From an uncultured Flavobacteriaceae bacterium (GTDB lineage Bacteria; Bacteroidota; Bacteroidia; AKYH767-A; OLB10), in the NCBI GenBank assembly GCA_964432885.1, contig CAYSPG010000012.1, positions 25,220 to 89,219 on the forward strand: 64,000 nucleotides of DNA, given 5' to 3'. Of the stretch, positions 27,503-63,094 are shown one piece after another; position 1 is the stretch's first letter, and the number at the start of each line of letters is the position of its first letter. The notes beneath the pieces were generated by a model that worked only from the letters and a program-made list of their open reading frames with translations, did no database searches and was not told the DNA's origin. The position numbers and the translations under genes were made by a program.

Positions 27503-29365
27503 TTAATCAAGTACAAATTCCTTTTTCCAATCGCCCACATCTTTAAACTCGGGCTGGTCGGTTTTAGCAAACAAGTAATTATTTACAACCAAATAATCCA
27601 TTTCAGTTCGCATAAAGCACCGGTACGAATCTTCGGGAGTGCACACTATTGGCTCGCCACGAACATTAAAGCTTGTATTTACCACAACACCATAGCCTGT
27701 AAGTTTTTTAAACTCATTAATCAATGTCCAGTATTTGGGATTGGTTTCTTTATGTACGGTTTGTATGCGTGCGCTAAAATCCAAATGCGTAATGCTTTGC
27801 ATATCGCTTCGCGGTGTGTAAAGTCTTTCCATCAATGGCAAATCAAAATAATTTGCTGGCAATGGCTTTTGTCTTTCCTTCTTCACATCGGCAACTATAA
27901 GCATGTAAGGCGATGTGGCATCATGGTCAAATAAATTTGAACATTCTTCGGCCATAACCGAAGGGGCAAATGGTCTGAAACTTTCGCGGTACTTAATTTT
28001 AAGATTTAATTTTTTTTGCATTTCGGTGTTGCGTGCATCACCCAATATGCTTCGCCCGCCAAGTGCTCGTGGACCAAATTCCATACGGCCCTGATGCCAG
28101 CCAATTACATTTCCATCGGCAATTAGTTTAGCAACCTTTGCTGCAAGTTCATCAAAATTTTGGTAATAATTGTAAACAGCTTTCTTTTTTCGTGCCATCA
28201 GTTCCACTTCCATATCGCTGTTTTCTGGCCCCAAATAAGAGCCACTCATTTCGTCCATTGCCCCACTCAATTTTCTTTCGTTACCAAAATAAATATAGTG
28301 TGCAGCTTGTGCAGCTCCCAAGGCGCCACCGGCATCACCTGCAGCAGGTTGAATAAAAATGTTTTTGAATATTTTTTTCCGATATAACTTTCCGTTTGCA
28401 ACACAATTTAGTGCAACACCACCTGCCATGCACAAATTATCACTACCCGTTAACCGCTTAGCCTCTTCGGCCATTTTATAAACCACATCTTCGGTAACCA
28501 TTTGTATGGCCAATCCTAAATCGCAATGCTGCTGTTCAAGATTTGATTCGCCTTCGCGAACAGCAAAGCCAAATAACTCCTTCCACTTGCTATCATTGGC
28601 CATGCGCAAGCCGGCAGCGTAATTAAAATATTCCTGATTAAGCCAAATTGAGCCATCGGCTTTTATATCAATAAGCTTATTGCAAATTATATCGTAATAC
28701 TTTTTTACATTCTCTGAGTTGGGATTTCCATAAGGTGCAAGTCCCATAAGTTTGTATTCGCCTGAGTTAACTTTAAAACCAAGATAATAGGTAAATGCTG
28801 AATAAAGCAATCCAAGAGAATGTGGAAAATGCAACTCTTTTATATTGGTAATTTTATTGCCTTTGCCATGACAAATACTTGCTGTTGCCCACTCCCCTAC
28901 TCCATCAATTGTAAGTATAGCAGCTTCCTGGTAAGGCGATGGGTAAAAAGCACTGGCGGCATGAGAAAGGTGGTGTTCAGGAAATAAAAGTTTTAATTTT
29001 TTTCCATCGTATTTTGAAATCTTTTCCAGTTCCTCCCTAATCAATCGTTTCAAAAACATTTTTTCCTTTAACCAAACAGGTATGGCCATTGAAAAGGATT
29101 GTATTCCCTTAGGGGCAAAGCCATAATAAGTTTCAAGCAACCGCTCAAATTTTAAAAGTGGCTTGTCATAAAAAACCACCGCATCTAACTCATCAATGGT
29201 AAGGCCAGCAAAATCAAGGCAATACTTGGTTGCACTGGCAGGAAAACCCGGGTCATGTTTTTTACGTGTAAACCGCTCTTCCTGTGCTGCCGCAATAATT
29301 TTTCCGTCTTGTAAAACTGCCGCTGCCGAATCGTGATAAAATGCTGATATGCCAAGTATATTCAA
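27503..29365 (-). CDS. Carbamoyltransferase (NodU/CmcH/SxtI family)
   Basis: 620 aa; N-terminal MNILGISAFYHDSAAAVL (Kae1/YgjD-like fold) plus a C-terminal carbamoyltransferase domain. Confidence 0.9.
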   Translation of the reverse strand: MNILGISAFYHDSAAAVLQDGKIIAAAQEERFTRKKHDPGFPASATKYCLDFAGLTIDELDAVVFYDKPLLKFERLLETYYGFAPKGIQSFSMAIPVWLKEKMFLKRLIREELEKISKYDGKKLKLLFPEHHLSHAASAFYPSPYQEAAILTIDGVGEWATASICHGKGNKITNIKELHFPHSLGLLYSAFTYYLGFKVNSGEYKLMGLAPYGNPNSENVKKYYDIICNKLIDIKADGSIWLNQEYFNYAAGLRMANDSKWKELFGFAVREGESNLEQQHCDLGLAIQMVTEDVVYKMAEEAKRLTGSDNLCMAGGVALNCVANGKLYRKKIFKNIFIQPAAGDAGGALGAAQAAHYIYFGNERKLSGAMDEMSGSYLGPENSDMEVELMARKKKAVYNYYQNFDELAAKVAKLIADGNVIGWHQGRMEFGPRALGGRSILGDARNTEMQKKLNLKIKYRESFRPFAPSVMAEECSNLFDHDATSPYMLIVADVKKERQKPLPANYFDLPLMERLYTPRSDMQSITHLDFSARIQTVHKETNPKYWTLINEFKKLTGYGVVVNTSFNVRGEPIVCTPEDSYRCFMRTEMDYLVVNNYLFAKTDQPEFKDVGDWKKEFVLD

Positions 29366-29524
29366 AGCTTATTTTATTTAAAAGTCGGCCAAAAGTAAGG
29401 AAATTGAAGATGTAAAAAGTCTGTTTGCTGTTTTCGGTTTTCGGTTTTAAATGCAAATCCAAACATTCTTCTTTGACCATATTATACTGGAGCTAATCTG
29501 TAATTTATTTAATGCCTCCATTAA

Positions 29525-30415
29525 CTATTTGGCCTTGGGTTTATAATTGATAAGATAAATGCCCGCAATAATTACCATCAGTGCAAAAAGATAAAACAGA
29601 TTAAACGTTTCGCCATCATGCAAACCCCACAGCACTGCAACAAACGGAATAAGATATGTAACCGAAGAAGCATACAATGCCGAAGACACTTTTATAAGCT
29701 GGTTAAAAATTACGGTTGACAATGCCGTGCCAAACACAGCCAGTATAATCACACAAACAAACGATGGAATAGCACCATCAACTGTTGACAGGCGTTGCAC
29801 AAAGTCGGTGGTAAATAAATAAATGCCCGAAGGAATACCCACGGCCACTAGCACTGCTCCCGAAAGCAAAATAGAATCAATTGTATTTAATTTGTTGCGC
29901 AAAATATTTACACTGCATGCGTAACAAATGGTGGCTATCAAAACATAAATGCCTTTCCACGGCTCGGCACTTTTTTCATCATCGGCACTCAGGTAAATTA
30001 AAAACGCGGCACCTGCCAATCCAAGAAACACACCGGCCACCTGTCTTGTTTTAAACTGTGTTTTAAAAAAAATAAAGCCTACCACAAGTGTAAATACTGA
30101 TGTAAGAGAGTTTAACATGCCCGCCATGCTGCTGCTAATTCCTGTTTCGGCATGGGTAAAAAGATAAGCCGGAATTCCATTGCCTAGCATACCTGCCCAA
30201 AAAACATATTTGTATTTTTCTTTTGGTATGGATTTTAATTTTGAAAACACAAACGGAAACAACACAATAAATGAGACAAGCATACGCAAAGCAGCTACCT
30301 GGTTGGGAGAAAAAACTTCAATACCGCGCTTCATCAGTATAAATGAACTGCCCCATATAACTGCAAGCAATGCAAGATAAATCCATTTTAAAATTCTATT
30401 TTTTGCGATGGCCAT
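29525..30415 (-). CDS. DMT-superfamily (EamA) transporter
   Basis: 10 TM helices in two EamA repeats; start taken at MAIAKNR to avoid a 120-nt overlap with the helicase gene. Confidence 0.8.
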   Translation of the reverse strand: MAIAKNRILKWIYLALLAVIWGSSFILMKRGIEVFSPNQVAALRMLVSFIVLFPFVFSKLKSIPKEKYKYVFWAGMLGNGIPAYLFTHAETGISSSMAGMLNSLTSVFTLVVGFIFFKTQFKTRQVAGVFLGLAGAAFLIYLSADDEKSAEPWKGIYVLIATICYACSVNILRNKLNTIDSILLSGAVLVAVGIPSGIYLFTTDFVQRLSTVDGAIPSFVCVIILAVFGTALSTVIFNQLIKVSSALYASSVTYLIPFVAVLWGLHDGETFNLFYLFALMVIIAGIYLINYKPKAK

Positions 30416-31670
30416 CTTTATTGCGGTTAAATTTTTTTTCGTGAAAAGCTCCTTTAAAATCGGGATTGTCTTTGCGCTTTTGCCTGTCAATTTCCATGGC
30501 TTGTTCCTGCTGCTCGGCAAATGTTGTTTTTTCTATTGCAATTTCAGCAGGCAATTCTTTTACAGGAATTTTTAATCCAATAAGTTTTTGAATTTTTTTT
30601 ATGTGCCATTCATCGGCCGGTGTGCAAAACGTTATGCAGGTACCGGTATTAAATGCGCGGGCTGTGCGGCCTGTGCGGTGCACATAATCTTCGTACACAA
30701 TCGGAACATCAAAATTTATTACATGCGAAACTGCCGATACATCAATGCCGCGTGCAGTAACATCGGTAGTTATCAAAATGGTAATGGCGCTTTCGCGAAA
30801 AGTGTTTAACGTGTTGGTGCGTGTTTGCTGTGCTTTATCGCCATGTAAAATATTTACTCCGCTTTCTTCAAACTCAAATTTTAAATTTTCGAAAACAGCA
30901 TTGGCAATTTTTTTTGATTTACAAAACACAATTACTTTTTTAAAAACCTCTTTTTGATTTAGCAGGTGCCTGAGAAAATTTATTTTGGTACCAAAGTTTG
31001 GTGTTTTATAAAGTTCTTGTTCAACTGTTGCCACTGTTTTTATTTCAGGAACAATGTTTATCACAATTGGGAACTCCATAAAGTCATCAGCAATTTTTTT
31101 TACCCTATCCGAAAATGTTGCCGAAAACAAAATGTTTTGCCGCTTGCGCGGAAGCACTTCAAGCAGTTTATGCAATTGTGGTGTAAATCCAAAATCCATC
31201 AGCCGCTCGGCTTCGTCAAGTACAAAGTGTTTTACTTTTTTTAAGATTAAAAAATTAGACAGGTACAGTTCCATTAATTGTGCCGGAGTACCTACTACGA
31301 CATCACAGCCGTCTGATAATTTTTTTTTCTGGTCGGTAAATCCTTTGCCGCCATAAACAGCAACTATTCTTACATCCGTATTTTTTCCCAACTGGTTAAA
31401 TACCGATGTTATTTGCAAAACAAGTTCACGGGTAGGAGCCACCACAACAAGGCGAGGCTCGTTTTCCTGAGCGTAATTTAAAATGCGCAACAGCGGCAAT
31501 ACATAGGCGGCAGTTTTACCAGTGCCTGTCTGTGCAATTCCAATTATATGCTGTCCACCAAGTATAATGGGAATGGCTTTGCTTTGAATCTCAGTAGGTG
31601 TAACAAATCCTGCATCGGCAACAGCAGTAAGCAACTGCTTGTTTAAGCGCAATTCTGAAAACGATGTCAT
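30396..31670 (-). CDS. DEAD-box ATP-dependent RNA helicase
   Basis: Q-motif (FVTPTEIQ), Walker A AQTGTGKT, DEAD box (VLDEAE), SAT, and HRTGRTAR motif VI. Confidence 0.92.
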   Translation of the reverse strand: MTSFSELRLNKQLLTAVADAGFVTPTEIQSKAIPIILGGQHIIGIAQTGTGKTAAYVLPLLRILNYAQENEPRLVVVAPTRELVLQITSVFNQLGKNTDVRIVAVYGGKGFTDQKKKLSDGCDVVVGTPAQLMELYLSNFLILKKVKHFVLDEAERLMDFGFTPQLHKLLEVLPRKRQNILFSATFSDRVKKIADDFMEFPIVINIVPEIKTVATVEQELYKTPNFGTKINFLRHLLNQKEVFKKVIVFCKSKKIANAVFENLKFEFEESGVNILHGDKAQQTRTNTLNTFRESAITILITTDVTARGIDVSAVSHVINFDVPIVYEDYVHRTGRTARAFNTGTCITFCTPADEWHIKKIQKLIGLKIPVKELPAEIAIEKTTFAEQQEQAMEIDRQKRKDNPDFKGAFHEKKFNRNKDGHRKK

Positions 31671-31712
31671 GCTGTTTGTGGTTTGAGGTTTGTAGTTTGA
31701 AGTTTGAGGTTG
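31671..31712 (-). promoter_or_regulatory. 5' leader made of five tandem heptads NNCAAAC ending 3 nt before the helicase AUG
   Basis: mRNA sense reads CCTCAAACTTCAAACTACAAACCTCAAACCACAAACAGC-AUG, with CAAAC recurring at an exact 7-nt period. Confidence 0.5.
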
Positions 31713-31770
31713 GGTTTCTCTTTATGTTATTTATACTTCAAACCTAAAACTTCAAACCATGAACCTTAAC

Positions 31771-32508
31771 CTACTTAACCCCTTTTTTAAGATGCACATT
31801 GCGAAGTCTGATGTTAAGTAACTCAACAAGCAACGAAAATGCAAGAGCGGTGTAGATATAACTTTTGTCTAAATGCAAATGCAATGATTCAACAAGTAGT
31901 ACCACACCTATTACAACTAAAAATGCAAGGGCCAGCATTTTAAGTGTTGGGTATTTTTCAATAAACGTGCTAACATACGGTGCAAAGGCCAGCATCACAA
32001 GCATTGAAATTACAACAGCAATAACCATAATAATTATTTGGTTACTCAAACCTACTGCTGTTATTATACTATCAAAAGAAAACACAATATCAATAAGCGT
32101 AATTTGCAATATGGCCTGTGTCATTGTCATTTGTCTTGACTTTGAGGTTTCTTCGTGGTCAGCAATTTTAAATTTGTGGTAAATTTCTTTTATGGTTTTT
32201 ATAATCAGGAAAACTCCACCCGAAAATAAAATCAAATCGCGGCCGCTAACGCCAAAATCAACAATGTAAAAAAGCGGGTTTACCAATCGGGCAATCCATG
32301 AAATGGTAAACAGCAAACAAATGCGAATTACCAAAGCCATCATTAAGCCAAGTGTACGCGCTGTTTTTTGGTCTTTTTTATTGGATACGTATCCGCAGAT
32401 AATGGCAATAAAAATTATGTTGTCAATACCCAATACAATTTCCATCAGTATTAGTGTTACTAGGCTGATGATTCCTTCGGGTGTCATTAAGGGGGCGAGA
32501 ATGTCCAT
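31771..32508 (-). CDS. TerC/Alx family integral membrane protein
   Basis: 245 aa, 7 TM helices, N-terminus LILMEIVLGIDNIIFIAI typical of TerC. Confidence 0.85.
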   Translation of the reverse strand: MDILAPLMTPEGIISLVTLILMEIVLGIDNIIFIAIICGYVSNKKDQKTARTLGLMMALVIRICLLFTISWIARLVNPLFYIVDFGVSGRDLILFSGGVFLIIKTIKEIYHKFKIADHEETSKSRQMTMTQAILQITLIDIVFSFDSIITAVGLSNQIIIMVIAVVISMLVMLAFAPYVSTFIEKYPTLKMLALAFLVVIGVVLLVESLHLHLDKSYIYTALAFSLLVELLNIRLRNVHLKKGVK

Positions 32509-32552
32509 ATACGGTTTAAAGTTTGAAGTTTACGGTTTGAAGTTTGAAGGGT
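32509..32552 (-). promoter_or_regulatory. 5' leader made of tandem heptads (Y)NN(C/T/A)AAAC ending 5 nt before the TerC AUG
   Basis: mRNA sense reads CCTTCAAACTTCAAACCGTAAACTTCAAACTTTAAACCGTAT-AUG. Confidence 0.5.
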
Positions 32553-32740
32553 GTTAGTAGGGCAAACAAGTAATTTGTTATCTTTAATCTGACATTCGAT
32601 GGTTTCAGATAACTGAAAACGGCAAACTGCAAACCGTTTTCGGCCGCAAATGTAACACAACAGCCTAAACCAAAATATTATTTTTACCTTAGGCAACGTT
32701 TGGCCTCATTTTGTAGTCTATGTATTTATAACTAACCTAA

Positions 32741-35401
32741 ATGAAAGAAAAGAAGTGTTTATTGGCATCCATTTTTTTTATGGTTTACCTGCCATCTGCT
32801 ATGGCACAAAATGGTCTAACGGTTTATGGTATGCCTTCGGGCTACACTTTAAATCAGGTGCGATACAAGAACTGTATAACAACAGATGTTAACAATAATG
32901 TTTACGTTGGATTCAGAGATATAGGTTTAGGAAAATTTACTCCTTCAACATCCACATGGGTAATGTATGATACGGTTAATTCAGTAATTCCATCAAACAA
33001 AATACTATCGCTTGACATTGATAATGCAGGAAACGTGTGGGCAGGTACAACAAAAGGTCTTGCAAAATACGATGGCAGTAACTGGACTGTTTACAACACG
33101 CAAAACTCAAATCTTATAAACGATAGTGTACAAAGTTTATTTATAGTTGGAACCAATATTTGGTTGGGCACTCCACAAGGTGTTTCGGTTTTTAATGGAA
33201 GCTTTACAAATTACACCACATCAAACTCATCATTAGTAAACAACAACATTACCTGCTTTGATGTTGATAGTGCCGGAAAAATTTTGATTGGTACTACAGG
33301 AGGGATTTCAATTTTTGATGGAAGCACCTGGACAAATTACACAACTGCCAACAGCGGTTTAATTTCAAACCAGATAAGACAGGTAAAATATGTTTCATCA
33401 AAAGCTACTTGGATTTCGACTGTTGCGGGAATTTGCAAATTGCAAAACGGCACCATTATAAATTACAACTGTGACTACACCTATTTATTTAATTTTTTTA
33501 TGGCTTCATACACAATTGCTAAAAAAAGTGATGAACTTTATGTTTTCCAGTATAATTTAACAAGGTTTAATGAGGATGATAATATTGACAGTATTGGGGT
33601 AAACGTAAGAGCAATGGGTAGCGTTGCGTTAATACAGTTTACCCACTTTGCATTCGACCATAACGGATTGCTTTGGACAGCTTATGGTGCCAACTCTACC
33701 ACAGCCGGGCTTTCAGCGTTTGACGAAACTCAATCATCAGGATTTGTCAATGTTACCCATGTTTCAAGCGAAAAGCATATTGACATTAACAATGTTGGGG
33801 CGCTGATAAGAAACAGAGGCGAAATGTTTTGGGATGGAGTTGGTGCTCCGCAGTATGAAGTACCTAAGTGCAGCGGTAAACACGCAAATTTTGCAGCTGC
33901 ACTTTGGATTGGTGGTTATGACCAAAATGGTTTATTGCACACCGCAGCACAAACATACAGGCAAGGTGGCAGAAATGATTTTTTACCAGGCCCACTGGAT
34001 ACCACCAATGCAACCATGGATTCGCTTATAACTATGGCTCCTTACGATAATATTTGGAGAACTAACCGCAATACCATTGATGCATTTAAAATAAATTTTT
34101 TAAACGGAAATGTGACCAATGGAACTTACCCTGTGCCAAACGAAATTTTAAGTTATCCCGCCAACGGTAGCGGTAACATAACACGCAACCTTGCTCCTTA
34201 TGTTGATTACAACGGAGATGGAAACTACAACCCTTATGATGGCGATTATCCAAAAATAAAAGGCGACCAGCAACTGTACTGGATTTTTAACGACCAAACT
34301 TTACACACCGAAACTGGTGGGCCTGCGTTTGGTTTTGAAATACATGCTTATGCATATGCATATAGTTGTAACCAAATTAACTTAGGCGATAGCAATGCAG
34401 TAATTGACTACACAACTTTTTATAAATATGAAATAATTAACCGAAGTATAAATACTTACGATAGTGTGTTTATAGGTTTGATGACTGACAGTGATCTAGG
34501 AGATGGATGGGATGATTATTTAGGCTGTGATTCTGTTTTAAATGCAGCCTTTACCTATAATGGAGATAATGATGATGGCACTGGATTTCCAAATGGATAT
34601 GGATTAAATCCACCTATGATTAATTGTCAGGTATTAAAGGGTCCTGAACCAGTACCTAATGATGGCATAGACAACGACCATGATGGAATCATAGATGAAT
34701 CAGGGGAGTTGAATATGATGACTGTATTCCATCCTTATACTGGAGGAGGCTCGATAACTGGCTACCCAGTTGCCACTGATGATTACTATCAATTTTTAAT
34801 TTCCAGATGGAGAGATGGCTCATTCGTAACGAATGATGGATTAAATGGTACAAACCAAAATTCTCCACCGACAAATTACCTCTATTCAGGAGTCCCATAT
34901 TCTGGAAATGGCTGGACTGAAGGTAGTGCTGGTAACGTTCCTTCTGACAGACGATTCGTTCTTTCTTCAGGCCCTTTTACAATTGCACCCAATGAAACAC
35001 GCACCATTGACTTTGCGTATGTATTTACATGGGATAGCACAGCGGTTAACGGATTAAATACTTCCATTGCGCGCAACACTGCCGATTTGCAACGGGTTAA
35101 GTATTGGTTTGACAACAATAATTTTCCATCATGCCTTAATACAGGAATAGAACATGCATCAACAAAAATTCCTGAAATAAAAATTTTCCCAAACCCGTCA
35201 ACCGATTTTATTACAGTAAGATGCTCTGATGTTTCAAGCCCCGTAAAAGTTGATATGTATGATGTAACAGGAAGAAAAATACTAAGCCGCAAAATAATTT
35301 CAGAAGGACAAGTAAATGTTTCCAGGCTCAGTCCTTCGGTATATTTTTTGCGCGCTGTGGTTAATGGAAATGCAGTTACTAAAAAGTTTGTGAAAAATTA
35401 A
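32741..35401 (+). CDS. Secreted protein with N-terminal two-component-regulator-propeller (Y_Y_Y-type) repeats and a T9SS type A C-terminal sorting domain
   Basis: Signal peptide; repeated motifs NVWAGTTKGLAKYDGSNWTVY...; C-terminus KIFPNPSTDFITV...VYFLRAVVNG matches the Por_Secre_tail type A domain. Confidence 0.75.
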   Translation: MKEKKCLLASIFFMVYLPSAMAQNGLTVYGMPSGYTLNQVRYKNCITTDVNNNVYVGFRDIGLGKFTPSTSTWVMYDTVNSVIPSNKILSLDIDNAGNVWAGTTKGLAKYDGSNWTVYNTQNSNLINDSVQSLFIVGTNIWLGTPQGVSVFNGSFTNYTTSNSSLVNNNITCFDVDSAGKILIGTTGGISIFDGSTWTNYTTANSGLISNQIRQVKYVSSKATWISTVAGICKLQNGTIINYNCDYTYLFNFFMASYTIAKKSDELYVFQYNLTRFNEDDNIDSIGVNVRAMGSVALIQFTHFAFDHNGLLWTAYGANSTTAGLSAFDETQSSGFVNVTHVSSEKHIDINNVGALIRNRGEMFWDGVGAPQYEVPKCSGKHANFAAALWIGGYDQNGLLHTAAQTYRQGGRNDFLPGPLDTTNATMDSLITMAPYDNIWRTNRNTIDAFKINFLNGNVTNGTYPVPNEILSYPANGSGNITRNLAPYVDYNGDGNYNPYDGDYPKIKGDQQLYWIFNDQTLHTETGGPAFGFEIHAYAYAYSCNQINLGDSNAVIDYTTFYKYEIINRSINTYDSVFIGLMTDSDLGDGWDDYLGCDSVLNAAFTYNGDNDDGTGFPNGYGLNPPMINCQVLKGPEPVPNDGIDNDHDGIIDESGELNMMTVFHPYTGGGSITGYPVATDDYYQFLISRWRDGSFVTNDGLNGTNQNSPPTNYLYSGVPYSGNGWTEGSAGNVPSDRRFVLSSGPFTIAPNETRTIDFAYVFTWDSTAVNGLNTSIARNTADLQRVKYWFDNNNFPSCLNTGIEHASTKIPEIKIFPNPSTDFITVRCSDVSSPVKVDMYDVTGRKILSRKIISEGQVNVSRLSPSVYFLRAVVNGNAVTKKFVKN

Positions 35402-35494
35402 TTGTTCAATTTTATTGGCTTTAGAATTTTGATTTTGCCTTACTAACCTTTTATAGTCACAGATTCACAGATTAAAATTATTATAGAAAAAAAT

Positions 35495-35535
35495 AAAGCA
35501 TTCAGATTTACTTTAATCTGAGTGCTTTATTTTTC
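35495..35535 (+). terminator. Rho-independent terminator after the T9SS cargo gene
   Basis: 14-bp stem AAAGCATTCAGATT / AATCTGAGTGCTTT (1 mismatch) with a 6-nt loop, followed by ATTTTTC. Confidence 0.65.
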
Positions 35536-35626
35536 AATCCTAATCTGTGAAACAAAGTTTATGAACACCATAATTTATAAAATAGCAAGTGAATAATCCG
35601 TGCCTATAAACCATTTTAGTTAAATC

Positions 35627-36700
35627 TTATACACCAAAAAGCACCTTAACTTTTTTGTTCAGCGGCTCTTCAATGCATTTAAAAAGCAAAACCGAAATGA
35701 TGGTTGAAGTAAACAATTCAATAAAAAAATAATTTCCAATATACTTTACAAACACAGTGTGCAAAATACCAAGATGAATAAGATAAAAGCAATAACTGCT
35801 TTTGCCCAGCAACTGAAACAGTTTTGTTGAAAGCATTTTTTCAACTGCTGTGCTTTCGGTAATTAATCCATAAATAAGCATTACGATGAAAACAGGCAGC
35901 ACAAAATTGTTAAGTGCAATTCCCCATCCTGTATGCAGCCCGTATTTTTCATCCACTCTTAAAAGAGAAAGCACTATTGTAATAAGCAAAACAGATAGTG
36001 CGCCCAAATATGTAAAAGAGAAAATTGTTTTTTTTGTTTTTCCGTTTTCTTTTAGCCAAAGTGCAAGTTGAATGCCTGCAAAAAATTCAAAGCACCTTCC
36101 AAAAAAAGTGTAAAGCAAAGTGAAACGGTACGAACCAAAAAATCCATCTGCAGTTTTTATATCATTAAAATAAACGGTAAGTAAAATTCCAATAGTTAAA
36201 ATGGCAAGAGGCATCATCCATAAATTTATTTTTCGGTGCAGTAAAAAAATAACCGGAGCGCATACATAAAAAACTTCTTCAACCGTTAACGACCACCCTT
36301 GCGCAATACCCGTTTGAAAGTACTGCTCAAAAAAGCCACGCAAAAAAGTTATGTTGAGCAAATAAATTTTTAATCCTTCGTTATAAAATAAAAAGGCAAC
36401 GGTGGTTATAATAAAATATACCGGGTAAATTCGCGCAATGCGGTTTACCATATATTTTTTAAACCAGTTTTTTTCAGAAGCAAACAAATGGTAATAGCGA
36501 TGGCAGATTAAAAAACCACTGAGCACAAAAAAAATGGTAACACCCACATGCCACTCCTGCAACACATCATAAACAAAAACCGGCAAACTAAGCGGAGTAA
36601 AGTGGTGTACAAAAACCAACAAAGCTGCCACATAACGCAGGCCGGTAAGAGCAGGAAAAATGTTTGCTGTTTTCAGTTCAATGAATTTAACTTTTGCCAA
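35627..36700 (-). CDS. Acyltransferase family 3 (OafA/YrhL-like) membrane protein
   Basis: 357 aa, 10 TM helices, N-terminal LRYVAALLVFVHHF motif. Confidence 0.85.
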   Translation of the reverse strand: MAKVKFIELKTANIFPALTGLRYVAALLVFVHHFTPLSLPVFVYDVLQEWHVGVTIFFVLSGFLICHRYYHLFASEKNWFKKYMVNRIARIYPVYFIITTVAFLFYNEGLKIYLLNITFLRGFFEQYFQTGIAQGWSLTVEEVFYVCAPVIFLLHRKINLWMMPLAILTIGILLTVYFNDIKTADGFFGSYRFTLLYTFFGRCFEFFAGIQLALWLKENGKTKKTIFSFTYLGALSVLLITIVLSLLRVDEKYGLHTGWGIALNNFVLPVFIVMLIYGLITESTAVEKMLSTKLFQLLGKSSYCFYLIHLGILHTVFVKYIGNYFFIELFTSTIISVLLFKCIEEPLNKKVKVLFGV

Positions 36701-36742
36701 AAGTAAAAGAATATAAAAACTGAATATGGAAAAAATCTCCCC

Positions 36743-37624
36743 CTATTTTCTTGCTTCTATGTACATGGTAACTTTGGGTGTTGTAAAATCAAAAAAAATC
36801 AGGTCACGCATTACAGGGCAAAAACTTTGCCCATAAGCCGAACGGTAAATTGTTTTAAATCCGGCTTTGGTAAGCATGGTAAAAATTTTTTTCTGGTTAA
36901 ACCAATTGATATGATTACCCGGATTTTGACGCTGTATTTCTATGCTGCAAAGAGAGGTGCAATAGTTCATAGCATCTTCAAACGACCTGGTGGCAAATAA
37001 ATCTTTAAGCTCCATATCGCTAATTCTTTTTACAGCACCATGCAATGGAATTTCAGAAGCCTGTGATGCAAAGTTTTCTAAAAAAACCTGTGCTGTTGTT
37101 TCCTGATTTAATGGTTTTCGAAGATTAACTCGTTTAAAATCTTTTTCAGAGCTATAATAGTCAATCCAATAAAAATAATCGCGATCGTTTTCTACGTATG
37201 CACGGTATTCAATATCAATATCAGGAGTTGCAATGCGAAAAAATCCTCCCGACTTTAGCATCCTGCAGGCTTCGTTAAAAAGATTTTGAACAGCTTCATC
37301 ATTAACATGCTCAATGGTATGGCTTGTATAAACCACCTCGGCACTGCCCGTTTCCACAGGTATAGGCTGACACGAAAACAAATCATAATTAATTCCGCCA
37401 AGGGTATTTTTTGTATTATCATTATACCATTCGCTAACAAAATCCACATTTGTCCAGCATGAATGATTAAATGCACCCGCGCCAACATTATAAAATCGTT
37501 TGTTGCGTACGCTGTCTTCTGAATAAATACGGTTATACATTTCTAAATTCTCATTTTTAACAGCCTTGCGTGAAATTTGCAATCCTGCCAAATCGAAAAT
37601 TTTTTTTAATGCATGTGTTATCAT
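36743..37624 (-). CDS. Hypothetical protein, probably a SAM-dependent (FkbM/class I-like) methyltransferase
   Basis: YNVGAGAFNH and LKSGGFFRIATPD motifs resemble MTase motifs I and post-I; sits in an operon with the acyltransferase-3 gene. Confidence 0.4.
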   Translation of the reverse strand: MITHALKKIFDLAGLQISRKAVKNENLEMYNRIYSEDSVRNKRFYNVGAGAFNHSCWTNVDFVSEWYNDNTKNTLGGINYDLFSCQPIPVETGSAEVVYTSHTIEHVNDEAVQNLFNEACRMLKSGGFFRIATPDIDIEYRAYVENDRDYFYWIDYYSSEKDFKRVNLRKPLNQETTAQVFLENFASQASEIPLHGAVKRISDMELKDLFATRSFEDAMNYCTSLCSIEIQRQNPGNHINWFNQKKIFTMLTKAGFKTIYRSAYGQSFCPVMRDLIFFDFTTPKVTMYIEARK

Positions 37625-37645
37625 CTTAAAAATATTTTTACAAAT

Positions 37646-37682
37646 AAAACTAAAAAGCCCCTCCGCTGTGCAAAGGGGCTTT
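37646..37682 (-). terminator. Rho-independent terminator of the T9SS cargo gene 37699..40449
   Basis: Perfect 9-bp stem AAAGCCCCT / AGGGGCTTT with an 11-nt loop; on the minus strand it is followed by TTTTTAGTTTTATTT. Confidence 0.7.
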
Positions 37683-37698
37683 AGTTAGGATTAAATTA

Positions 37699-40449: not shown

Positions 40450-40604
40450 GATACTCTGGAATTAAATTTATTGAATATTATACTCTACATAAGACCTGAG
40501 GGTTTCCTTATTATAGATATATATCAAAACAAAGCTTTACAAAAAGGGTGTAATTCTTACACTTTTGCAAAGTAAAAAACAATAAAAAAGTAAGGGTTTT
40601 AAAA

Positions 40605-41573
40605 TCAGAGAAGTGCAGCAATAATCTTCTCAACCGAAATACCATCGGCTTCGGCTTTGTAATTGCGAACAATGCGATGGCGTAAAATAGGTGTGGCAAC
40701 TGCTTTTACATCCTCTATATCAGGAGAAAATTTTCCGTTGATGGCTGCATGGCACTTTGCTCCCACCACCAAAAACTGGGATGCACGAGGGCCTGCTCCC
40801 CAGGCAACATACTCATTTACCATTTGAATGGAACTAACTGTATTAGGCCTTGTTTTAGCAGTAAGCGAAACAGCGTAATTCAAAACATTGTCGGGAACAG
40901 GAATTTTTCGAATTAAACCCTGGTAAAACAGTATTTCGTCAGCCGAAATAACTTTTGATGCCGATGACATGTTTTCGGCAGTGGTGTTTTTTACAATGGT
41001 AAGCTCTTCGGCTTGTGATGGGTAATCTAAAAACACATTAAACATAAACCTGTCGAGCTGCGCTTCGGGCAGCGGGTAGGTTCCCTCCTGCTCAATGGGG
41101 TTTTGTGTAGCCAGTACAAAAAACGGGTTACCTAGTTCAAAGCGCTTGCCGGCTACAGTAACCGAGCGCTCCTGCATTGCTTCTAATAAGGCGGCTTGTG
41201 TTTTGGGTGGGGTACGGTTTATTTCATCGGCCAGCACAATGTTGGCAAACACGGGGCCTTTTATAAAACGAAAGTGCCTGTTCTCGTCTAATATTTCTAT
41301 TCCGGTTATGTCACTCGGCATTAAATCGGGGGTAAACTGTATGCGGTTAAACGTTACACCCAGCGCCTGGGAAATGGTATTTACCAAAAGTGTTTTGGCC
41401 AAACCCGGTACACCCACCAGCAGGCAATGCCCTTTGCTGAATATTGAAATTAATACATCGCGCACCACCTCATCCTGCCCTACTATTACTTTTCCTATTT
41501 CGGCACGAAGTTTTTTATAGTTGTCAACTAAACTTTTTATTGCTTCAACGTCTGATGAAAATTGTTTGTCCAT
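40605..41573 (-). CDS. MoxR-family AAA+ ATPase
   Basis: Walker A GVPGLAKT, Walker B ILLADEINR, and MoxR-specific C-terminal region. Confidence 0.9.
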   Translation of the reverse strand: MDKQFSSDVEAIKSLVDNYKKLRAEIGKVIVGQDEVVRDVLISIFSKGHCLLVGVPGLAKTLLVNTISQALGVTFNRIQFTPDLMPSDITGIEILDENRHFRFIKGPVFANIVLADEINRTPPKTQAALLEAMQERSVTVAGKRFELGNPFFVLATQNPIEQEGTYPLPEAQLDRFMFNVFLDYPSQAEELTIVKNTTAENMSSASKVISADEILFYQGLIRKIPVPDNVLNYAVSLTAKTRPNTVSSIQMVNEYVAWGAGPRASQFLVVGAKCHAAINGKFSPDIEDVKAVATPILRHRIVRNYKAEADGISVEKIIAALL

Positions 41574-41630
41574 ACCAAAGGAGGTTTGCAGTTTACTTTT
41601 TGTGGTTTGCAGATTATGGTTTGCGGCTAA
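41574..41630 (-). promoter_or_regulatory. 5' leader with GCAAACC heptad-lattice repeats abutting the MoxR AUG
   Basis: mRNA sense reads GCCGCAAACCATAATCTGCAAACCACAAAAAGTAAACTGCAAACCTCCTTTGGT-AUG; GCAAACC at offsets 0, 14 and 35 (multiples of 7). Confidence 0.4.
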
Positions 41631-41667
41631 TTAAATTTAAACTACAAACGTTACATCTTAAACCATT

Positions 41668-43825: not shown

Positions 43826-43853
43826 AAATAACACATGGATATAAAAAAGTTTT

Positions 43854-43909: not shown

Positions 43910-43933
43910 AGAACTCAATAACTGCAACACGAA

Positions 43934-46370: not shown

Positions 46371-46433
46371 ATAGCTACTCAAGCTAATGTCGCCACTGCC
46401 AACCTGATATATTGACTTTACTACCTTAGCCGC

Positions 46434-59653: not shown

Positions 59654-62600
59654 TTAAGGTTTTAAACCGTTAGATGAACTTTTGCCCTCAAGCAAAACAT
59701 TTACCTGAGCATCGGGCTTGTTCTCAAAAATTTTAAGATTACGTCTTATACTAACCGCATATCGCTCTTTATAGTCAGATGTTTTTGCACGTTTTAATTT
59801 AGCAATTACCGCATCGTCTTCAGAAGGTTGGCTTGCTGTTTTTAACTCAGTTTCAGTTTCTGCAATTGTTGTGGGTTGGCTAATTGCAACAGGCTGTTTG
59901 GGAAGTTCCTGTGTCTTTGGCACTGAAGTAATTTTTTCTTCTACAATATTTTTAGTAAGCGTTGCAACTGAAATATTCTTTTGTTGTGACGATTTAACGA
60001 CAGTTTGTTTTGCAGGCTTGCTGTCAACCTTGGTTGATTCGATAGTTGTTGCAAGTTTTATTTCTTCAGTTGGCTTGCGCTCGGTAACTGCTGGTGCTGG
60101 TTCAACTACTCCTTTGGTAATTTCTTTTACAGTAATATTTTTTTGCTGATCGGCTTTAACTGCATTTTGCTTTACGGGTTTGCTGTTAACCTTAACTGGT
60201 TCAATGGCTGATGCAAGTTTTATTTCTTCAATAGGTTTACGTTCAACAACTGTAGATGCTGGTTCGATTACTCTCTTTGTAATTTCGTTTACAGCAATAT
60301 TTTTTTGTTGCTCAGCCTTAACCGCATTTTGTTTTGCAGGCTTGCTGTCAACCTGGATTGGCTCAATGGCTGTTGCAAGTTTCATTTCATTTAAACTCTT
60401 TGCCTCGGTTAGTCCCTTCTGTTCTGATACTTCCTTCTTTCTTTGTGCTTCAACATAACCACTAAACTCTGCTTCTTTTAATTCGTTAGATTGTGGTTCC
60501 ATTTTTTTTGTTTCTGGTGTGGTTTCAGCAGTCGCTTCACTTATGTTGTTTGTAATTTGTTTTACTGAAATATTTTTTTGCTGATCGGCTTTAACTGCAG
60601 TTTGTTTTACAGCCTTGCTTTCAACTTTTGTAGGCTCAATGGTTGTTGCAAATTTTATTTCTTCAACTGGTTTGCGTTCTTCTGCAACGGGCACAGTTGG
60701 TTTTGCAACTTCGGCAACTGGCTCAACCACACCTTTTGTAATTTCTTTTACAGTAATATTTTTTTGTTGATCAGCTTTAACTGCAGTTTGTTTTACAGCC
60801 TTGCTTTCAACTTTTGTAGGCTCAATGGTTGTTGCAAATTTTATTTCTTCAACTGGTTTGCGTTCTTCTGCAACGGGCACAGTTGGTTTTGCAACTTCGG
60901 CAACTGGCTCAACCACACCTTTTGTAATTTCTTTTACAGTAATATTTTTTTGTTGATCAGCTTTAACTGCAGTTTGTTTTACAGCCTTGCTTTCAACTTT
61001 TGTAGGCTCAATGGTTGTTGCAAATTTTATTTCTTCAACTGGTTTGTGTTCTTCTGCAACGGGCTCAGTTGGTTTTGCAACTTCGGCAACAGGTTCAACC
61101 ACACCTTTGGTAATTTCTTTTGCAACTGGCGTTTCAGCAATTTTATTTTCGTCACCCTTTGTTTGACTAGTTTTTTCAACTTTTGATTTTTCAGGTTTAG
61201 CAATGTTGGTTTTGCTTTGCTCTTTTTGCAAATCTTCAAAATTCAATTCGTCCAAACTAAACGATTGGGCAAGTTGCTGATTTTGTTTAGTAATCGAATC
61301 CTGCTTTTGCTTTAAAGCAATCTCATCCTTTTTATCCTTCTGGTTAAGTTTATCTTTAGCAATTTGTTCCATTTCAGCATCCTGCTTTGGTTTTAGCTGC
61401 TGCGCGTATTTTGTGCGCTCTGCCTTCCAATTGCACAATTGCTTTATTTTAGTTTCAGCAACTGTGTAAGCAATTACCGGAGTTAACTTAATACCCATAT
61501 CCTCAACATATCCTGCTCTTTTAATTTCGGCTTGCTTTTGTTCAACAGGTTTTTGTTCAGCAGGGTTTTTTGTGCTTACATGAGTATTGGCTGCAATTGG
61601 TTTTGTTGCTTGTTGCAAAGATGATGGTGCAGAAGGTGAACTGTTAGATGCTGCAGTTTTATTATTGGTGGCTTGTGCTGCATTTTGTTTTGCAGCTTTT
61701 GATGCTGCCAGCATTTGTTCAATCGTTTGCGGTTGATTGCTTGGTTTATCGGGCGCATTAGGATACTTTATGTTGATAGCAACAGTTTCTTTACCCGAAT
61801 TATTTTTCGAAAGAATTACTTCCTGTTCAACTGCAGTATATCCGTCTTCTATAAAAAATTCGCCCATTAGAAATGTAAAGCCCGGCTTATCAATCTTGCA
61901 AGCGTATTTTTTTGCCTTAGGCAATTTTATTTCGTAACCACCAGTTTTTGTATCTACCTGTATTTGCGACAGCAGCTTATACGATTCGCCATCATAAAAC
62001 ATAAGTGTTGCCTGTAAATCTTCGGGACGGTATGTGTTTGAAAAATTTCCTTTGATATAAATTTTACCCTCATCCTTAGTTATCAAACTAATTTTAAATT
62101 TCTGTACTTTTCCTAAATCACAATCACGATTGCTTAAAAATTTGGCTGATTTATTTCCACTATCTGGCAAAAACAAATAATCATCATACGGGCTGTTTAC
62201 GGGCATTCCTAAGTTTTCGGGCACACCCCAGTTACTTGTTGTTTCATTCCATGTACATTTAAACACATCATAACCGCCCATGCTCTGCTCATTGTTTGCA
62301 CTAAAATAAAGTACGGTACCATTTTGAGCTGTGGTAGGATAAATTTCATCGGCAATTGTATTTACAGGCGATTGCAACCTTACAGGTTTATCATATTTTT
62401 CGGCACCTTTTTTATTTGCATAAAAAATATCGGCATGGTACGAACCATCCGTTCCTTTGCTTGAATAATAAACACGGTTTCCATTTGCTTCTAAAAATAA
62501 AAACTGTGGTTCGTTTAATTTTTTATCATAATTGGATTGAAAAGCCTCTGTTATTTTTAGCAATTTTCCATTTTCAGAAAAATAATTTCCGGCCACGTTT

Positions 62601-63094
62601 ACCAGCTCTTCATTTGCCTTTTCATTAATTGGGTATTTATCTCCAAGTTGCTTTATTCTTAATCCTGATTTGCACTGTTGGATGCGTGTGTCCACTTTCC
62701 ATTCGGTAAGCAATTCCTGCCCTGTATATTTTTTAAAAATCTGATACGACCGCATGCTTTGATCGAAATCATACGTAAGCTGATAAGCCAATCCTAAATA
62801 ATAATATACATCCTTGGGTGTGTTTGCACTCATGGAGGCTTTTTCAAGATGCTTAATGGCATCAACAACATTTACTCCTGAAAGCACGCGGCTTACACCA
62901 TACAAGTATTGATACCGAACATCGGCCGGATGATTGCTTACCAATTGTGCATACTGCCATGATGCCTGCCGATATTGTTTTGTTTTAAAATAATTATCGG
63001 CACTAATGGCAAGTTCCTTGTCCTGTGCATGCAAACATGCAATGCTCATTACAAAAAGTGCCAACAGTATATAAAATTTATTTGCTTTAGTCAT
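59654..63094 (-). CDS. Large exported protein: N-terminal TPR plus PD40/TolB-like region (as in Bacteroidota OmpA-family proteins), with the C-terminal half a Lys/Glu/Pro-rich tandem 62-aa repeat array and no recognisable OmpA domain
   Basis: Signal peptide MTKANKFYILLALFVMSIACLHAQ; TPR-like helices at residues ~30-130; WD/PD40-like region at ~200-330; repeats ITKGVVEPVAEVAKPTVPVAEERKPVEEIKFATTIEPTKVESKAVKQTAVKADQQKNITVKE x3 near-identical plus about 4 diverged copies. Confidence 0.7.
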   Translation of the reverse strand: MTKANKFYILLALFVMSIACLHAQDKELAISADNYFKTKQYRQASWQYAQLVSNHPADVRYQYLYGVSRVLSGVNVVDAIKHLEKASMSANTPKDVYYYLGLAYQLTYDFDQSMRSYQIFKKYTGQELLTEWKVDTRIQQCKSGLRIKQLGDKYPINEKANEELVNVAGNYFSENGKLLKITEAFQSNYDKKLNEPQFLFLEANGNRVYYSSKGTDGSYHADIFYANKKGAEKYDKPVRLQSPVNTIADEIYPTTAQNGTVLYFSANNEQSMGGYDVFKCTWNETTSNWGVPENLGMPVNSPYDDYLFLPDSGNKSAKFLSNRDCDLGKVQKFKISLITKDEGKIYIKGNFSNTYRPEDLQATLMFYDGESYKLLSQIQVDTKTGGYEIKLPKAKKYACKIDKPGFTFLMGEFFIEDGYTAVEQEVILSKNNSGKETVAINIKYPNAPDKPSNQPQTIEQMLAASKAAKQNAAQATNNKTAASNSSPSAPSSLQQATKPIAANTHVSTKNPAEQKPVEQKQAEIKRAGYVEDMGIKLTPVIAYTVAETKIKQLCNWKAERTKYAQQLKPKQDAEMEQIAKDKLNQKDKKDEIALKQKQDSITKQNQQLAQSFSLDELNFEDLQKEQSKTNIAKPEKSKVEKTSQTKGDENKIAETPVAKEITKGVVEPVAEVAKPTEPVAEEHKPVEEIKFATTIEPTKVESKAVKQTAVKADQQKNITVKEITKGVVEPVAEVAKPTVPVAEERKPVEEIKFATTIEPTKVESKAVKQTAVKADQQKNITVKEITKGVVEPVAEVAKPTVPVAEERKPVEEIKFATTIEPTKVESKAVKQTAVKADQQKNISVKQITNNISEATAETTPETKKMEPQSNELKEAEFSGYVEAQRKKEVSEQKGLTEAKSLNEMKLATAIEPIQVDSKPAKQNAVKAEQQKNIAVNEITKRVIEPASTVVERKPIEEIKLASAIEPVKVNSKPVKQNAVKADQQKNITVKEITKGVVEPAPAVTERKPTEEIKLATTIESTKVDSKPAKQTVVKSSQQKNISVATLTKNIVEEKITSVPKTQELPKQPVAISQPTTIAETETELKTASQPSEDDAVIAKLKRAKTSDYKERYAVSIRRNLKIFENKPDAQVNVLLEGKSSSNGLKP
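59900..61150. repeat. Intragenic tandem repeat array; 186-bp unit with 3 near-identical copies at ~60583-61140 and diverged ~160-186-bp copies at ~59900-60580
   Basis: The DNA-level identity of three consecutive 186-bp units is also visible as a three-fold repeated antisense ORF (60578..61186 in the track). Confidence 0.85.

Follow-up and report, generated by a model that had tools for sequence, protein, structure and literature searches.

Between the TerC gene and the gene for an RhlE-like DEAD-box helicase, on the minus strand of the 64,000-nucleotide stretch of DNA analysed here (the window), lies a 100-nt spacer (31671–31770) composed almost wholly of a 7-nt repeat in two arrays of opposite orientation, which give the longest local inverted repeat across the whole 64-kb window. 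What is such a structure doing directly upstream of a helicase start codon? Some DEAD-box helicases are cold-induced, and the first-pass annotation read the hairpin as a helicase leader that might switch structure with temperature, or else as an intergenic terminator or attenuator. We find that the element is best read as a member of a repeat class and not as a helicase-specific device, and that the hairpin is not a temperature switch or a conserved dedicated riboregulator.

Read from 31770 to 31671, the spacer is GTTAAGGTTCATGGTTTGAAGTTTTAGGTTTGAAG-TATAAATAACATAAAGAGAAACCCAA-CCTCAAACTTCAAACTACAAACCTCAAACCACAAACAGC, followed by the ATG at 31670–31668. TRF reports two period-7 arrays in it, at 31674–31711 (5.4 copies) and 31735–31757 (3.3 copies), and the inverted repeat has arms of 34 nt (31678–31711 and 31741–31774) that are 79% complementary and separated by 29 nt. 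The junction comprises the following features.

31771–31773, minus strand: TerC stop codon TAG (ORF 31771–32508; Pfam TerC), within the outermost pairs of the hairpin in the minimum free energy (MFE) structure.
31741–31774, minus strand: upstream (5′) arm of the stem, made of GTTTG-type heptads (GGTTCAT GGTTTGA AGTTTTA GGTTTGA AG), from the inverted repeat, TRF and the MFE structure.
31739–31746, minus strand: TAGGTTTG, within the 5′ arm, agreeing at every position with the Bacteroidota −7 promoter box TAnnTTTG (motif scan).
31712–31740, minus strand: A-rich loop of 29 nt between the arms, from the inverted repeat and the MFE structure.
31674–31711, minus strand: 3′ arm of the hairpin and leader of the helicase, 5.4 tandem CAAACYN heptads, G-free, from TRF, motif matches and the MFE structure.
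31668–31670, minus strand: start codon of the helicase, unpaired in the MFE structure (ORF 30396–31670; Pfam DEAD and Helicase_C).

The leader contains four overlapping matches to CAAACNNCAAAC, and the helicase N terminus agrees with those of its orthologues.

For this segment (31660–31775, minus strand) RNAfold gives an MFE of −29.1 kcal/mol, compared with −15.7 ± 3.3 kcal/mol for shuffled sequences (z = −4.07; 0 of 200 shuffles as good), and a second independent shuffle run agrees (z = −4.04; 1 of 300 as good). The claim that the leader pairs with an antisense copy upstream of it, in the spacer between the two genes and with an energy better than that of shuffled controls, is thus borne out, with adjustments. 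The upstream arm, GGTTTGAAGTTTTAGGTTTGAAG, had been placed at 31728–31750 and is actually at 31736–31758, 8 nt away. A stem-loop had been proposed with ~23 nt of pairing and a ~30-nt loop; it is real, with a loop of 29 nt, but its lowest-energy register is one heptad over and comprises about 29–30 bp (2 + 4 + 5 + 13 + 5), the outermost on the TerC stop codon. Of the AUG-proximal region proposed to be sequestered, −8 to −41 are paired in the MFE structure (31678–31711), and the AUG and positions −1 to −7 are unpaired. Searched against Rfam at gathering and permissive thresholds, the hairpin region matched no bacterial cis-regulatory family; only eukaryotic miRNA-precursor models appeared, below threshold, which indicates nothing more particular than a generic long hairpin. 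The yybP–ykoY (Mn2+) riboswitch often precedes TerC genes; in the TerC leader it gave no Rfam match at the gathering threshold or at E ≤ 10 (31500–32800).

In the folding model the 5′ arm transforms the helicase initiation region: opening −35 to −5 is predicted to cost 16.8 kcal/mol with that arm and 0.3 kcal/mol without it, the leader alone being essentially unstructured. These predictions support masking of the leader in any transcript that carries both arms. Bacteroidia ribosomes disregard the Shine–Dalgarno (SD) sequence and have their initiation tuned by an A-rich initiation region that lacks structure (PMC6847099); since Bacteroidota have no SD sequence, what the hairpin may possibly mask is a standby region. 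Translational coupling, in which a ribosome terminating on TerC would melt the hairpin, was rejected: such a ribosome is predicted to lower the cost of opening −20 to +20 only from 11.1 to 8.0 kcal/mol, so that coupling by melting would be weak at best. Also rejected, as not general, was a phasing of the heptad adenines with the A−3/A−6/A−12/A−13 determinants of F. johnsoniae, which fits the leaders of the helicase and of one relative (L124) and not those of TerC, MoxR (41573) or DUF1599 (48789).

The heptads had been taken for a feature of the helicase leader. The same heptads, however, precede the TerC, MoxR ATPase, hypothetical and DUF1599 genes, the first three with an inverted partner, and a related array lies upstream of the carbamoyltransferase promoter. 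These siblings are listed below.

29423–29448, minus strand: AAAACCG/CAAACAG heptads upstream of the carbamoyltransferase promoter (TRF, pattern scan).
32514–32553, minus strand: TerC leader, CAAAC/TAAAC heptads (TRF, pattern scan).
32611–32637, minus strand: GTTTG-type partner, 27 nt long and inverted relative to the TerC leader, which is 73 nt away and 78% complementary to it (inverted-repeat search).
32647–32654, minus strand: TerC −7 box TACATTTG, upstream of that partner (motif scan).
41584–41650, minus strand: leader of the MoxR AAA ATPase gene, degenerate CAAAC heptads with a weak upstream GTTTG-type partner (fold z = −1.0).
43848–43915, minus strand: near-perfect heptad hairpin at the junction of the PPIase and hypothetical genes, with arms of 28 nt, 96% complementary, and a loop of 12 nt.
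48798–48823, minus strand: leader of the DUF1599 gene, CAAAC heptads without an inverted partner (TRF, pattern scan).

The hairpin at the PPIase junction has an MFE of −41.3 kcal/mol (z = −8.7) and is followed by a T-run; the TerC leader and its partner fold with z = −2.1. From the last unit to the ATG there are 3 nt for the helicase, 5 for TerC, 8 for DUF1599 and 10 for MoxR. Across the window, CAAACNNCAAAC occurs 7 times against 0.44 expected, a three-unit pattern with up to 3 mismatches has 24 matches against 1.9 expected, and 8 of the 9 arrays of at least three units are intergenic, in a window with 7.6% intergenic DNA (p = 9 × 10−9). By Pfam the array-bearing genes are functionally unrelated. 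From array to array the unit changes freely at its variable positions (CAAACTT, CAAACCA, AAAACCG). An array of the 8-mer CATCACAT serves as the leader of a folP-like gene. Together, the free variation of the units and this 8-mer array favour composition over a specific motif.

Comparison with relatives gives the repeats a short history at this junction. In the deeper relatives L173 and L174, whose helicase is 65% identical, the order TerC–helicase–EamA is kept and the TerC stop overlaps the helicase ATG (ATGA), leaving no spacer; elsewhere among the relatives the spacers are 49–75 nt long and carry no promoter box, and such overlaps or short promoterless spacers imply an operon. Of the closer relatives, two lineages show a weaker form and one lineage shows none: in L124 the architecture is unchanged but there are fewer units and A·C mismatches (−13.6 kcal/mol, z = −1.5), in L004 there is a short, related hairpin (−13.5 kcal/mol), and the spacers of L001–L003 fold into no hairpin (z = +0.4). 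The helicase leader accordingly has 5 units in the window, against 3 in L124, about 1 in L004 and 0 in L001. The TerC leader likewise has 5 units in the window and about 3 and 1 in relatives, and the carbamoyltransferase array is missing from the orthologous spacer of L004, so that both of these arrays are, like that of the helicase, smaller or lost in relatives. From these alignments, heptad arrays expand, decay and vanish between close relatives. Conservation of the pairing, to which the first-pass annotation had looked for confirmation, is found in part: three of four close relatives allow alignment of a 13-bp core helix, though without covariation support, RNAalifold finds no consensus structure across four orthologues (0 pairs) and the deeper relatives have no spacer. 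For the three heptad-bearing spacers the covariation term is +1.22, with one compensatory pair. That complementarity is weak in L124 and the hairpin missing from L001 suggests that selection may not act on the hairpin itself.

Beyond this lineage, CAAACNN arrays were found at more than 119 genome loci among the matches listed, about 52 of them in Bacteroidota and 15 in cyanobacteria. An array was counted as near a start if an ORF of at least 100 aa had its ATG within 60 nt, a crude form of gene calling. By this rule, and among the matches listed, arrays near starts are in the CAAAC sense 33 times and in the GTTTG sense 9 times over all genomes (p = 3 × 10−4), with 14 and 2 in Bacteroidota only; an independent, de-duplicated collection of viral contigs gives 25 versus 8 toward starts (p = 0.005), again among the matches listed. 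Phage homologues that are mutually ~30% identical all have a (CAAACAA)n leader, and no PHROG annotation was found for the phage proteins with heptad leaders. Where Bacteroidota arrays listed among the matches have an inverted partner, the order is GTTTG-then-CAAAC in 10 cases and the reverse in 0; inverted partners show a marginal excess over direct ones (10 versus 3, p = 0.09) among the matches listed, and of the cyanobacterial arrays sampled from those matches, 0 of 17 have an inverted partner.

The reading that we favour, at a probability of roughly 0.55, is that the spacer arose by a lineage-specific insertion, of simple-sequence repeats with a heptanucleotide unit, and consists of a G-free leader and an inverted arm that masks it constitutively. 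An ancestral, tightly packed TerC–helicase–EamA operon would have gained heptad repeats at its junction, with about five sense-strand CAAACYN copies now adjoining the helicase AUG and three to four GTTTG-type copies after the TerC stop. The start-proximal arm would be one of the widespread G-free, A/C-rich sense arrays that precede starts in Bacteroidota, cyanobacteria and phages, and its simplest role may be that of an unstructured landing site for non-SD ribosomes. The inverted arm and the start-proximal arm would form a constitutive stem-loop of about −29 kcal/mol that hides helicase positions −8 to −41, so that helicase translation should fall, or uncouple, relative to TerC; we infer this effect on helicase expression from folding. 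The stem-loop may also shield the upstream RNA segment.

The hairpin could have no selected role at all, the slippage arrays and their inverted duplication being neutral by-products kept where they are tolerated. We consider this unlikely. In its favour are the quick gain, loss and decay among relatives, the absence of covariation and the lack of a functional theme among array-bearing genes. The polarity could be explained simply by avoidance of G in initiation regions, the G content of −50 to −1 being low before most genes. Against it, a helix of −29 kcal/mol abutting the initiation region would be unlikely, on folding grounds, to leave expression unaffected; the array is kept in all of the divergent phage homologues; and, among the matches listed, inverted partners exceed direct ones and are strictly polar.

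A somewhat less probable role is that of a terminator, attenuator or 3′-end stabiliser of the TerC mRNA, with the helicase transcribed separately. The 5′ arm starts on the TerC stop codon, the sibling hairpin at the PPIase junction is followed by a T-run, and long intercistronic hairpins (REP elements) stabilise upstream mRNA in other bacteria. Termination, part of the original annotation, nevertheless looks unlikely here, since no U-tract follows the stem, which reads on as ...CAAACAGCATG, the loop is 29 nt long and the stem is rich in A, U and G·U; a terminator scan of 29000–48999 did not flag the hairpin, and where the scan does find canonical terminators in this genome, a T-run follows a short GC stem. 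Separate transcription could draw on TAGGTTTG as a possible internal promoter. If that promoter were real, the helicase's own mRNA would lack the 5′ arm and the hairpin would form only in read-through RNA. TAnnTTTG is not enriched in the window, however (72 matches against 105 expected), so a single match is weak evidence; no −33 TTG lies 17–20 nt upstream, the spacing of other promoters in the window; the box is absent from the orthologous spacers of L001, L004 and L124; and the operon arrangement implied by the relatives speaks against a separate transcript. As a general explanation, a GTTTG arm acting as promoter with a CAAAC arm as leader was rejected: of the arms compared, that of the helicase alone contains TAnnTTTG, which is missing from those of TerC, 41573 and 43836 and from the Bacteroidota examples.

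More speculatively, and with similarly low confidence, the favoured reading might extend to a general system in which G-free arrays are modular, slippage-tunable initiation elements for SD-blind ribosomes, in Bacteroidota and their phages, and inverted arrays are graded anti-leaders that decouple operon genes. Unit number would set the length of a landing pad, possibly read by bS1, a cold-shock-domain or an RRM protein with a footprint of ~7 nt, and the distal GTTTG array, so placed in all ten of the ordered Bacteroidota pairs among the matches listed, would be a built-in anti-leader. The helicase hairpin would then be no one-off structure but one position on a general, evolvable dial for expression.

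It is improbable that the arrays are specific sites for a single-strand RNA-binding protein (bS1, cold-shock-domain or RRM) that defines a post-transcriptional regulon, with the inverted arm as competitor. The strict 7-nt period and the sense orientation beside starts are in its favour, as are the precedent of single-strand RNA-binding-protein sites already suggested for TAACTGA repeats (PMC4679880) and the proposed contact of bS1 with −12 to −15 in F. johnsoniae (PMC6847099); the freely varying units and the 8-mer leader of the folP-like gene count against it. Least probable of all is an RNA thermometer or cold switch, a temperature-changing hairpin driving cold induction of the helicase, for although the hairpin adjoins the AUG of a gene family with known cold-induced members, its MFE structure does not differ between 15 °C (−43.9 kcal/mol) and 37 °C (−29.1 kcal/mol) and persists to 70 °C (−9.7 kcal/mol), the predicted cost of opening the initiation region climbs monotonically on cooling to 24.7 kcal/mol at 10 °C, contrary to cold induction, the AUG is unpaired and there is no SD to sequester, unrelated genes are preceded by the same element, the closest orthologues have none or a degenerate one and deeper relatives no spacer, and Rfam matches no thermoregulator.

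For this locus the result is mainly corrective, in that an apparent cold-sensing leader is a copy of a dispersed simple repeat, and it warns annotators that long hairpins in such genomes can derive from repeats. It also bears on how Bacteroidota ribosomes choose start sites without an SD: the arrays, by their sense orientation at starts in Bacteroidota and phages, their retention before divergent phage homologues and their one-way pairing in Bacteroidota, offer a natural and easily engineered series for testing whether initiation rates are set by the composition, length and masking of the leader.

The closest known likeness is to the TAACTGA heptamer direct repeats described by MacGregor in 2015 in Beggiatoaceae, cyanobacteria and a few Bacteroidetes (PMC4679880). 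Those occur in 2–6 or more tandem copies, nearly all intergenic and forward, ending a few nucleotides before starts, with a patchy, strain-specific spread, no SD and no theme among the downstream genes; in BOGUAY one case among 170 sets is inverted (PMC4679880). The arrays here are likewise tandem 7-nt units, intergenic, forward, near the starts of functionally mixed genes and patchy, but their unit is CAAACYN with a G-free sense strand, and inverted copies are frequent and form long hairpins. As summarised in PMC4679880, the survey of long simple sequence repeats (LSSR) by Mrazek et al. (2007) found heptanucleotide units to be the commonest and polymerase slippage their likely origin. The arrays resemble those LSSR, so summarised, in that unit number differs between relatives (here 5 versus 3 versus 0–1), and differ in their strong start-ward polarity, the summary giving no concentration beside starts.

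Among cyanobacterial repeats, STRR were reportedly described by Mazel et al. in 1990. The Nostoc heptamers of Pradhan et al. (2022) are contiguous, dispersed and near starts or promoters, with a regulatory role speculated (bioRxiv 10.1101/2022.06.06.494920). Placement and dispersal are alike in our arrays and the unit sequences differ; CAAACNN arrays, too, are found in cyanobacterial genomes, the home of these families.

Other comparisons concern structure. An RNA thermometer is weakly structured, melts at physiological temperatures and occludes the SD or AUG; like thermometers, and like cspA-type cold-responsive leaders, the hairpin is a 5′-leader structure beside a start codon, but its stability is far too great, there is no rearrangement between 15 and 37 °C and the AUG is left unpaired. 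REP/BIME elements are dispersed imperfect intergenic palindromes of enterobacterial operons, stable stem-loops able to stabilise the mRNA upstream of them or to modulate expression downstream, and REPs have a conserved consensus of ~35 nt and a cognate transposase (RAYT). The present hairpins are similarly dispersed, imperfect palindromes at operon junctions with stable RNA stem-loops, but their copies have only the heptad unit in common and their arms are tandem repeats. A mobile MITE/REP palindrome was rejected as an origin, loops and flanks differing among the window and Bacteroidota copies and only the heptads being shared. Finally, the TMV omega leader and CA multimers in E. coli are G-free, A/C-rich, unstructured repeats, placed before or around the start codon, that favour SD-independent initiation, and we know of no description or test of a genome-wide heptad version of such an enhancer in SD-blind Bacteroidota. 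Our arrays are similar G-free, A/C-rich leaders at start codons, but those CA-rich or CAA-repeat examples are viral or synthetic; the helicase array itself, being tandem, intergenic, forward and copy-variable, is of the heptamer-repeat type that lies upstream of starts.

The spacer between the TerC and helicase genes is exactly 100 nt long and consists almost entirely of one 7-nt repeat, present in two opposed arrays:

32508..31771, minus strand: TerC gene, stop codon TAG at 31773-31771
31735-31757: second period-7 array, 3.3 copies, opposite orientation (Tandem Repeats Finder)
31674-31711: period-7 array, 5.4 copies (Tandem Repeats Finder)
31670..30396, minus strand: RhlE-like DEAD-box helicase gene

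Read in the mRNA sense, the array at 31674-31711 runs CCTCAAA CTTCAAA CTACAAA CCTCAAA CCACAAAC, leaving 3 nt to the helicase ATG. An inverted-repeat search pairs 31678-31711 with 31741-31774 (34-nt arms, 79% complementarity, 29-nt gap), and this repeat outranks every other local inverted repeat of the 64-kb window in length. RNA spanning 31775-31660 folds at -29.1 kcal/mol, compared with -15.7 ± 3.3 kcal/mol for dinucleotide shuffles (z = -4.07, 0/200), and a repeat of the shuffle test gave z = -4.04 (1/300). The hairpin that the first-pass annotation had placed between the two genes is therefore real, exceptionally stable and far above chance. Its arms pair as claimed there, but best in a register shifted by one heptad (~29 bp), and the upstream 23-mer lies at 31736-31758 rather than 31728-31750. 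The outermost pairs fall on the TerC stop codon; the leader is paired down to -8, and the AUG itself and the final 7 leader nucleotides remain free.

The heptad element is dispersed and is not helicase-specific. Within the window, CAAACNNCAAAC has 7 matches against 0.44 expected, and a three-unit pattern with at most 3 mismatches has 24 against 1.9. Of nine arrays with three or more units, eight are intergenic in a window with just 7.6% intergenic DNA (p = 9e-9), and the genes bearing them share no common function. The other sites include:

29423-29448: carbamoyltransferase array, 5′ of that gene's promoter
32514-32553: TerC heptad leader, 5 nt to the ATG
32611-32637: inverted partner of the TerC leader, 27 nt, 78%, fold z = -2.1
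41584-41623: heptad leader of a MoxR-type AAA ATPase, weak partner at ~41638-41650
43848-43915, minus strand: heptad hairpin, 28-nt arms (96%), 12-nt loop, -41.3 kcal/mol, z = -8.7
48798-48823: CAAAC heptad leader of a DUF1599 gene

The hairpin at 43848-43915, the window's most extreme structure, has near-perfectly matching heptad arms (GCGTTTAGTGTTTTAAGTTTAG / CTAAACTTAAAACACTAAACGC) followed by a T-run, AAAACTTTTTT; situated between PPIase and hypothetical genes, ~24 nt from the downstream ATG, it could be a repeat-derived terminator. In the divergent spacer 48789-48895, both genes (DUF1599 and folP-like) have G-free tandem-repeat leaders; that of the folP-like gene, an 8-nt/24-nt repeat (CATCACAT, 48833-48890, 6.8 copies) unlike the CAAAC heptads, contributes to a stretch with zero G across -50..-1. 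A separate inverted repeat that is not built of heptads (10596-10668, minus strand; 26-nt arms, 81% complementary) adjoins the ATG of cofactor-independent phosphoglycerate mutase, whose leader has the window's second highest predicted opening cost (20 kcal/mol for -35..-5). Two large tandem repeats, one with 162-nt units (2.4 copies, 79%) and one with 186-nt units (3.1 copies, 97%), also occupy 59993-61121, inside an ORF (59654..63094, minus strand, 1146 aa) whose predicted product is a recently amplified repeat-domain protein.

Beyond the window, arrays of this class occur widely and tend to point at start codons. When one genome per species was scanned for CAAACNN units, four in a row, at least 119 loci were found; those listed include ~52 from Bacteroidota (Chitinophagaceae, Saprospiraceae, Ferruginibacter, Sediminibacterium, Flavobacteriia and others) and 15 from cyanobacteria. 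ATG-started ORFs of at least 100 aa beginning within 60 nt downstream followed 33 of the listed arrays in the CAAAC reading and 9 in the GTTTG reading (p = 3e-4), with 10 against 0 for starts within 8 nt and 14 against 2 among the listed Bacteroidota arrays. An independent scan of viral contigs gave 58 against 9 among the matches listed, or 25 against 8 once related contigs were clustered (p = 0.005). An inverted partner lies within ~130 nt of 10 of the 61 Bacteroidota arrays listed, and in all 10 the GTTTG arm is distal and the CAAAC arm proximal (opposite order 0, p = 0.002); direct partners among the listed matches are 3 upstream and 5 downstream. Several of these hairpins adjoin a start codon, with the ATG at one locus (L099) only 6 nt beyond the array. 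The strict GTTTG-then-CAAAC order seems specific to Bacteroidota. Outside Bacteroidota and cyanobacteria (for example, L120, L112, L096, L098 and L048), the CAAAC arm comes first in 8 listed matches versus 3.

In phages, small proteins of 110–158 aa with ~30% mutual identity carry a (CAAACAA)4-6 leader throughout, 3–14 nt from the ATG (L185, L199, L207, L279, L216, L223, L257 and others). They share an N terminus of the type MAKFIKF.../MARFISI... and an ANPGGV motif, and have no PHROG match. Because the leader is kept at such low protein identity, the comparison argues that selection retains these arrays, in the phage setting. A second phage family (MNFEIQALGG...) has the same (CAAACAA) leader 4 nt from its ATG.

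The best helicase homologues are from uncultured Bacteroidota ('Bacteroidia bacterium', 65% identity), and TerC–helicase order is kept in four close lineages. L124 (TerC 93%, helicase 78% identical) shares the window's spacer architecture, with GTTTAAA-type heptads, a 16-nt loop, three CAAAC heptads, 3 nt and the ATG; an A·C mismatch in each heptad leaves -13.6 kcal/mol (z = -1.5). A related but short hairpin, GATTTGAAGTTTGTCGT...ACGGACAGAACTTCAAG (-13.5 kcal/mol, z = -1.8), occurs in L004 (helicase 80%), and the 75-nt spacers of L001–L003 (helicase 83%) have neither heptads nor hairpin (z = +0.4). The pairing is conserved only in part: RNAalifold predicted zero pairs over the four spacers and, over the three that bear heptads, a 13-bp core helix alone, in which a single pair is compensatory and the covariation term is positive, a penalty. 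Other arrays also vary, the TerC leader having 5 units in the window, ~3 in L124 and 1 in L001 behind a conserved promoter box; the carbamoyltransferase array is absent from L004, where the promoter box is conserved. The abundant P0010 lineage (65% identical) has no TerC–helicase spacer: the stop of the one gene and the ATG of the other overlap (ATGA). The helicase also overlaps EamA, which comes next, and the window retains this helicase–EamA overlap. This gene order indicates a tight, spacer-free TerC–helicase–EamA operon in deeper relatives, so that the window's spacer and repeats are a derived state; on comparative grounds, the hairpin is shown to be a derived, evolutionarily labile insertion at the operon junction. 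The ATGA overlap of TerC stop and helicase ATG lies at 2501-2504 in the deeper relatives L173 and L174 (helicase 65% identical).

Among the functions considered for the spacer, an internal promoter is possible. The 5′ arm contains TAGGTTTG, a match to the -7 promoter consensus, and Bacteroidota-type TAnnTTTG boxes precede many window genes. The motif is without enrichment in the window (72 versus 105 expected), no -33 TTG lies 17–20 nt away, the spacing of other window promoters, and the box is absent from all relatives compared. Were this putative promoter real, the helicase's own transcript would be open-leadered and the hairpin confined to read-through RNA. Elsewhere, L175 has a helicase -7 box of its own (TACATTTG, ~2480-2500, ~12 nt before the ATG), and in L132, L133, L160 and L167 an TACCTTTG box sits just upstream of 3001, ~5 nt before the helicase ATG, a hint that other Bacteroidota may have helicase mRNAs with almost no leader. 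The same box (52956-52963) serves as promoter box of the window's tmRNA gene (52541-52935, minus strand; Rfam RF00023, 150 bits).

A ribosome that terminates on TerC is predicted to open the structure little, lowering the cost over -20..+20 from 11.1 to 8.0 kcal/mol and leaving the core helix unchanged, and translational coupling by this route was rejected. Thermoregulation, suggested by the first-pass annotation, is not borne out in silico: the minimum free energy structure is the same at 15 and 37 °C (-43.9, -29.1 and -9.7 kcal/mol at 15, 37 and 70 °C), with no temperature-dependent rearrangement. Within an operon-length RNA, the cost of opening -35..-5 rises from 16.8 kcal/mol at 37 °C to 24.7 kcal/mol at 10 °C. 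Any effect would therefore be constitutive and would grow in the cold, the reverse of cold induction. The suggested intergenic terminator or attenuator is improbable, given the lack of a U-tract, the 29-nt loop, the AU/GU-rich stem and absence from a terminator scan of 29000-48999 that found ordinary GC-stem and T-run examples (for example, 37682-37654). A search of known RNA families gave no match, and no yybP-ykoY riboswitch was found before TerC.

We instead favour constitutive masking. The G-free start-proximal array may act, or be tolerated, as an initiation region that is unstructured and independent of SD pairing. On operon mRNA, the inverted arm would hide this region at all times and so reduce helicase translation or uncouple it; the hairpin might perhaps also protect upstream RNA.

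Heptanucleotide units are described as the commonest prokaryotic long simple-sequence repeats and ascribed to slippage (Mrazek 2007, as cited in PMC4679880). TAACTGA direct repeats, found in Beggiatoaceae, cyanobacteria and five Bacteroidetes, are mostly forward and sit a few nucleotides from start codons without SD sequences, before unrelated genes; they have no known function, and binding of S1, Csp or CsrA has been proposed (MacGregor 2015, PMC4679880). A Nostoc preprint speculated on a regulatory role for heptamer repeats near start codons (bioRxiv 10.1101/2022.06.06.494920). Flavobacterium johnsoniae ribosomes ignore SD sequences, and initiation in Bacteroidia is tuned by an A-rich region that lacks structure (PMC6847099). 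CAAAC arrays fit this SD-blind picture of initiation, and the helicase CAAAC leader alone is predicted to be essentially unstructured (0.3 kcal/mol to open -35..-5). The heptad arrays described here are kin to these known heptamer elements.
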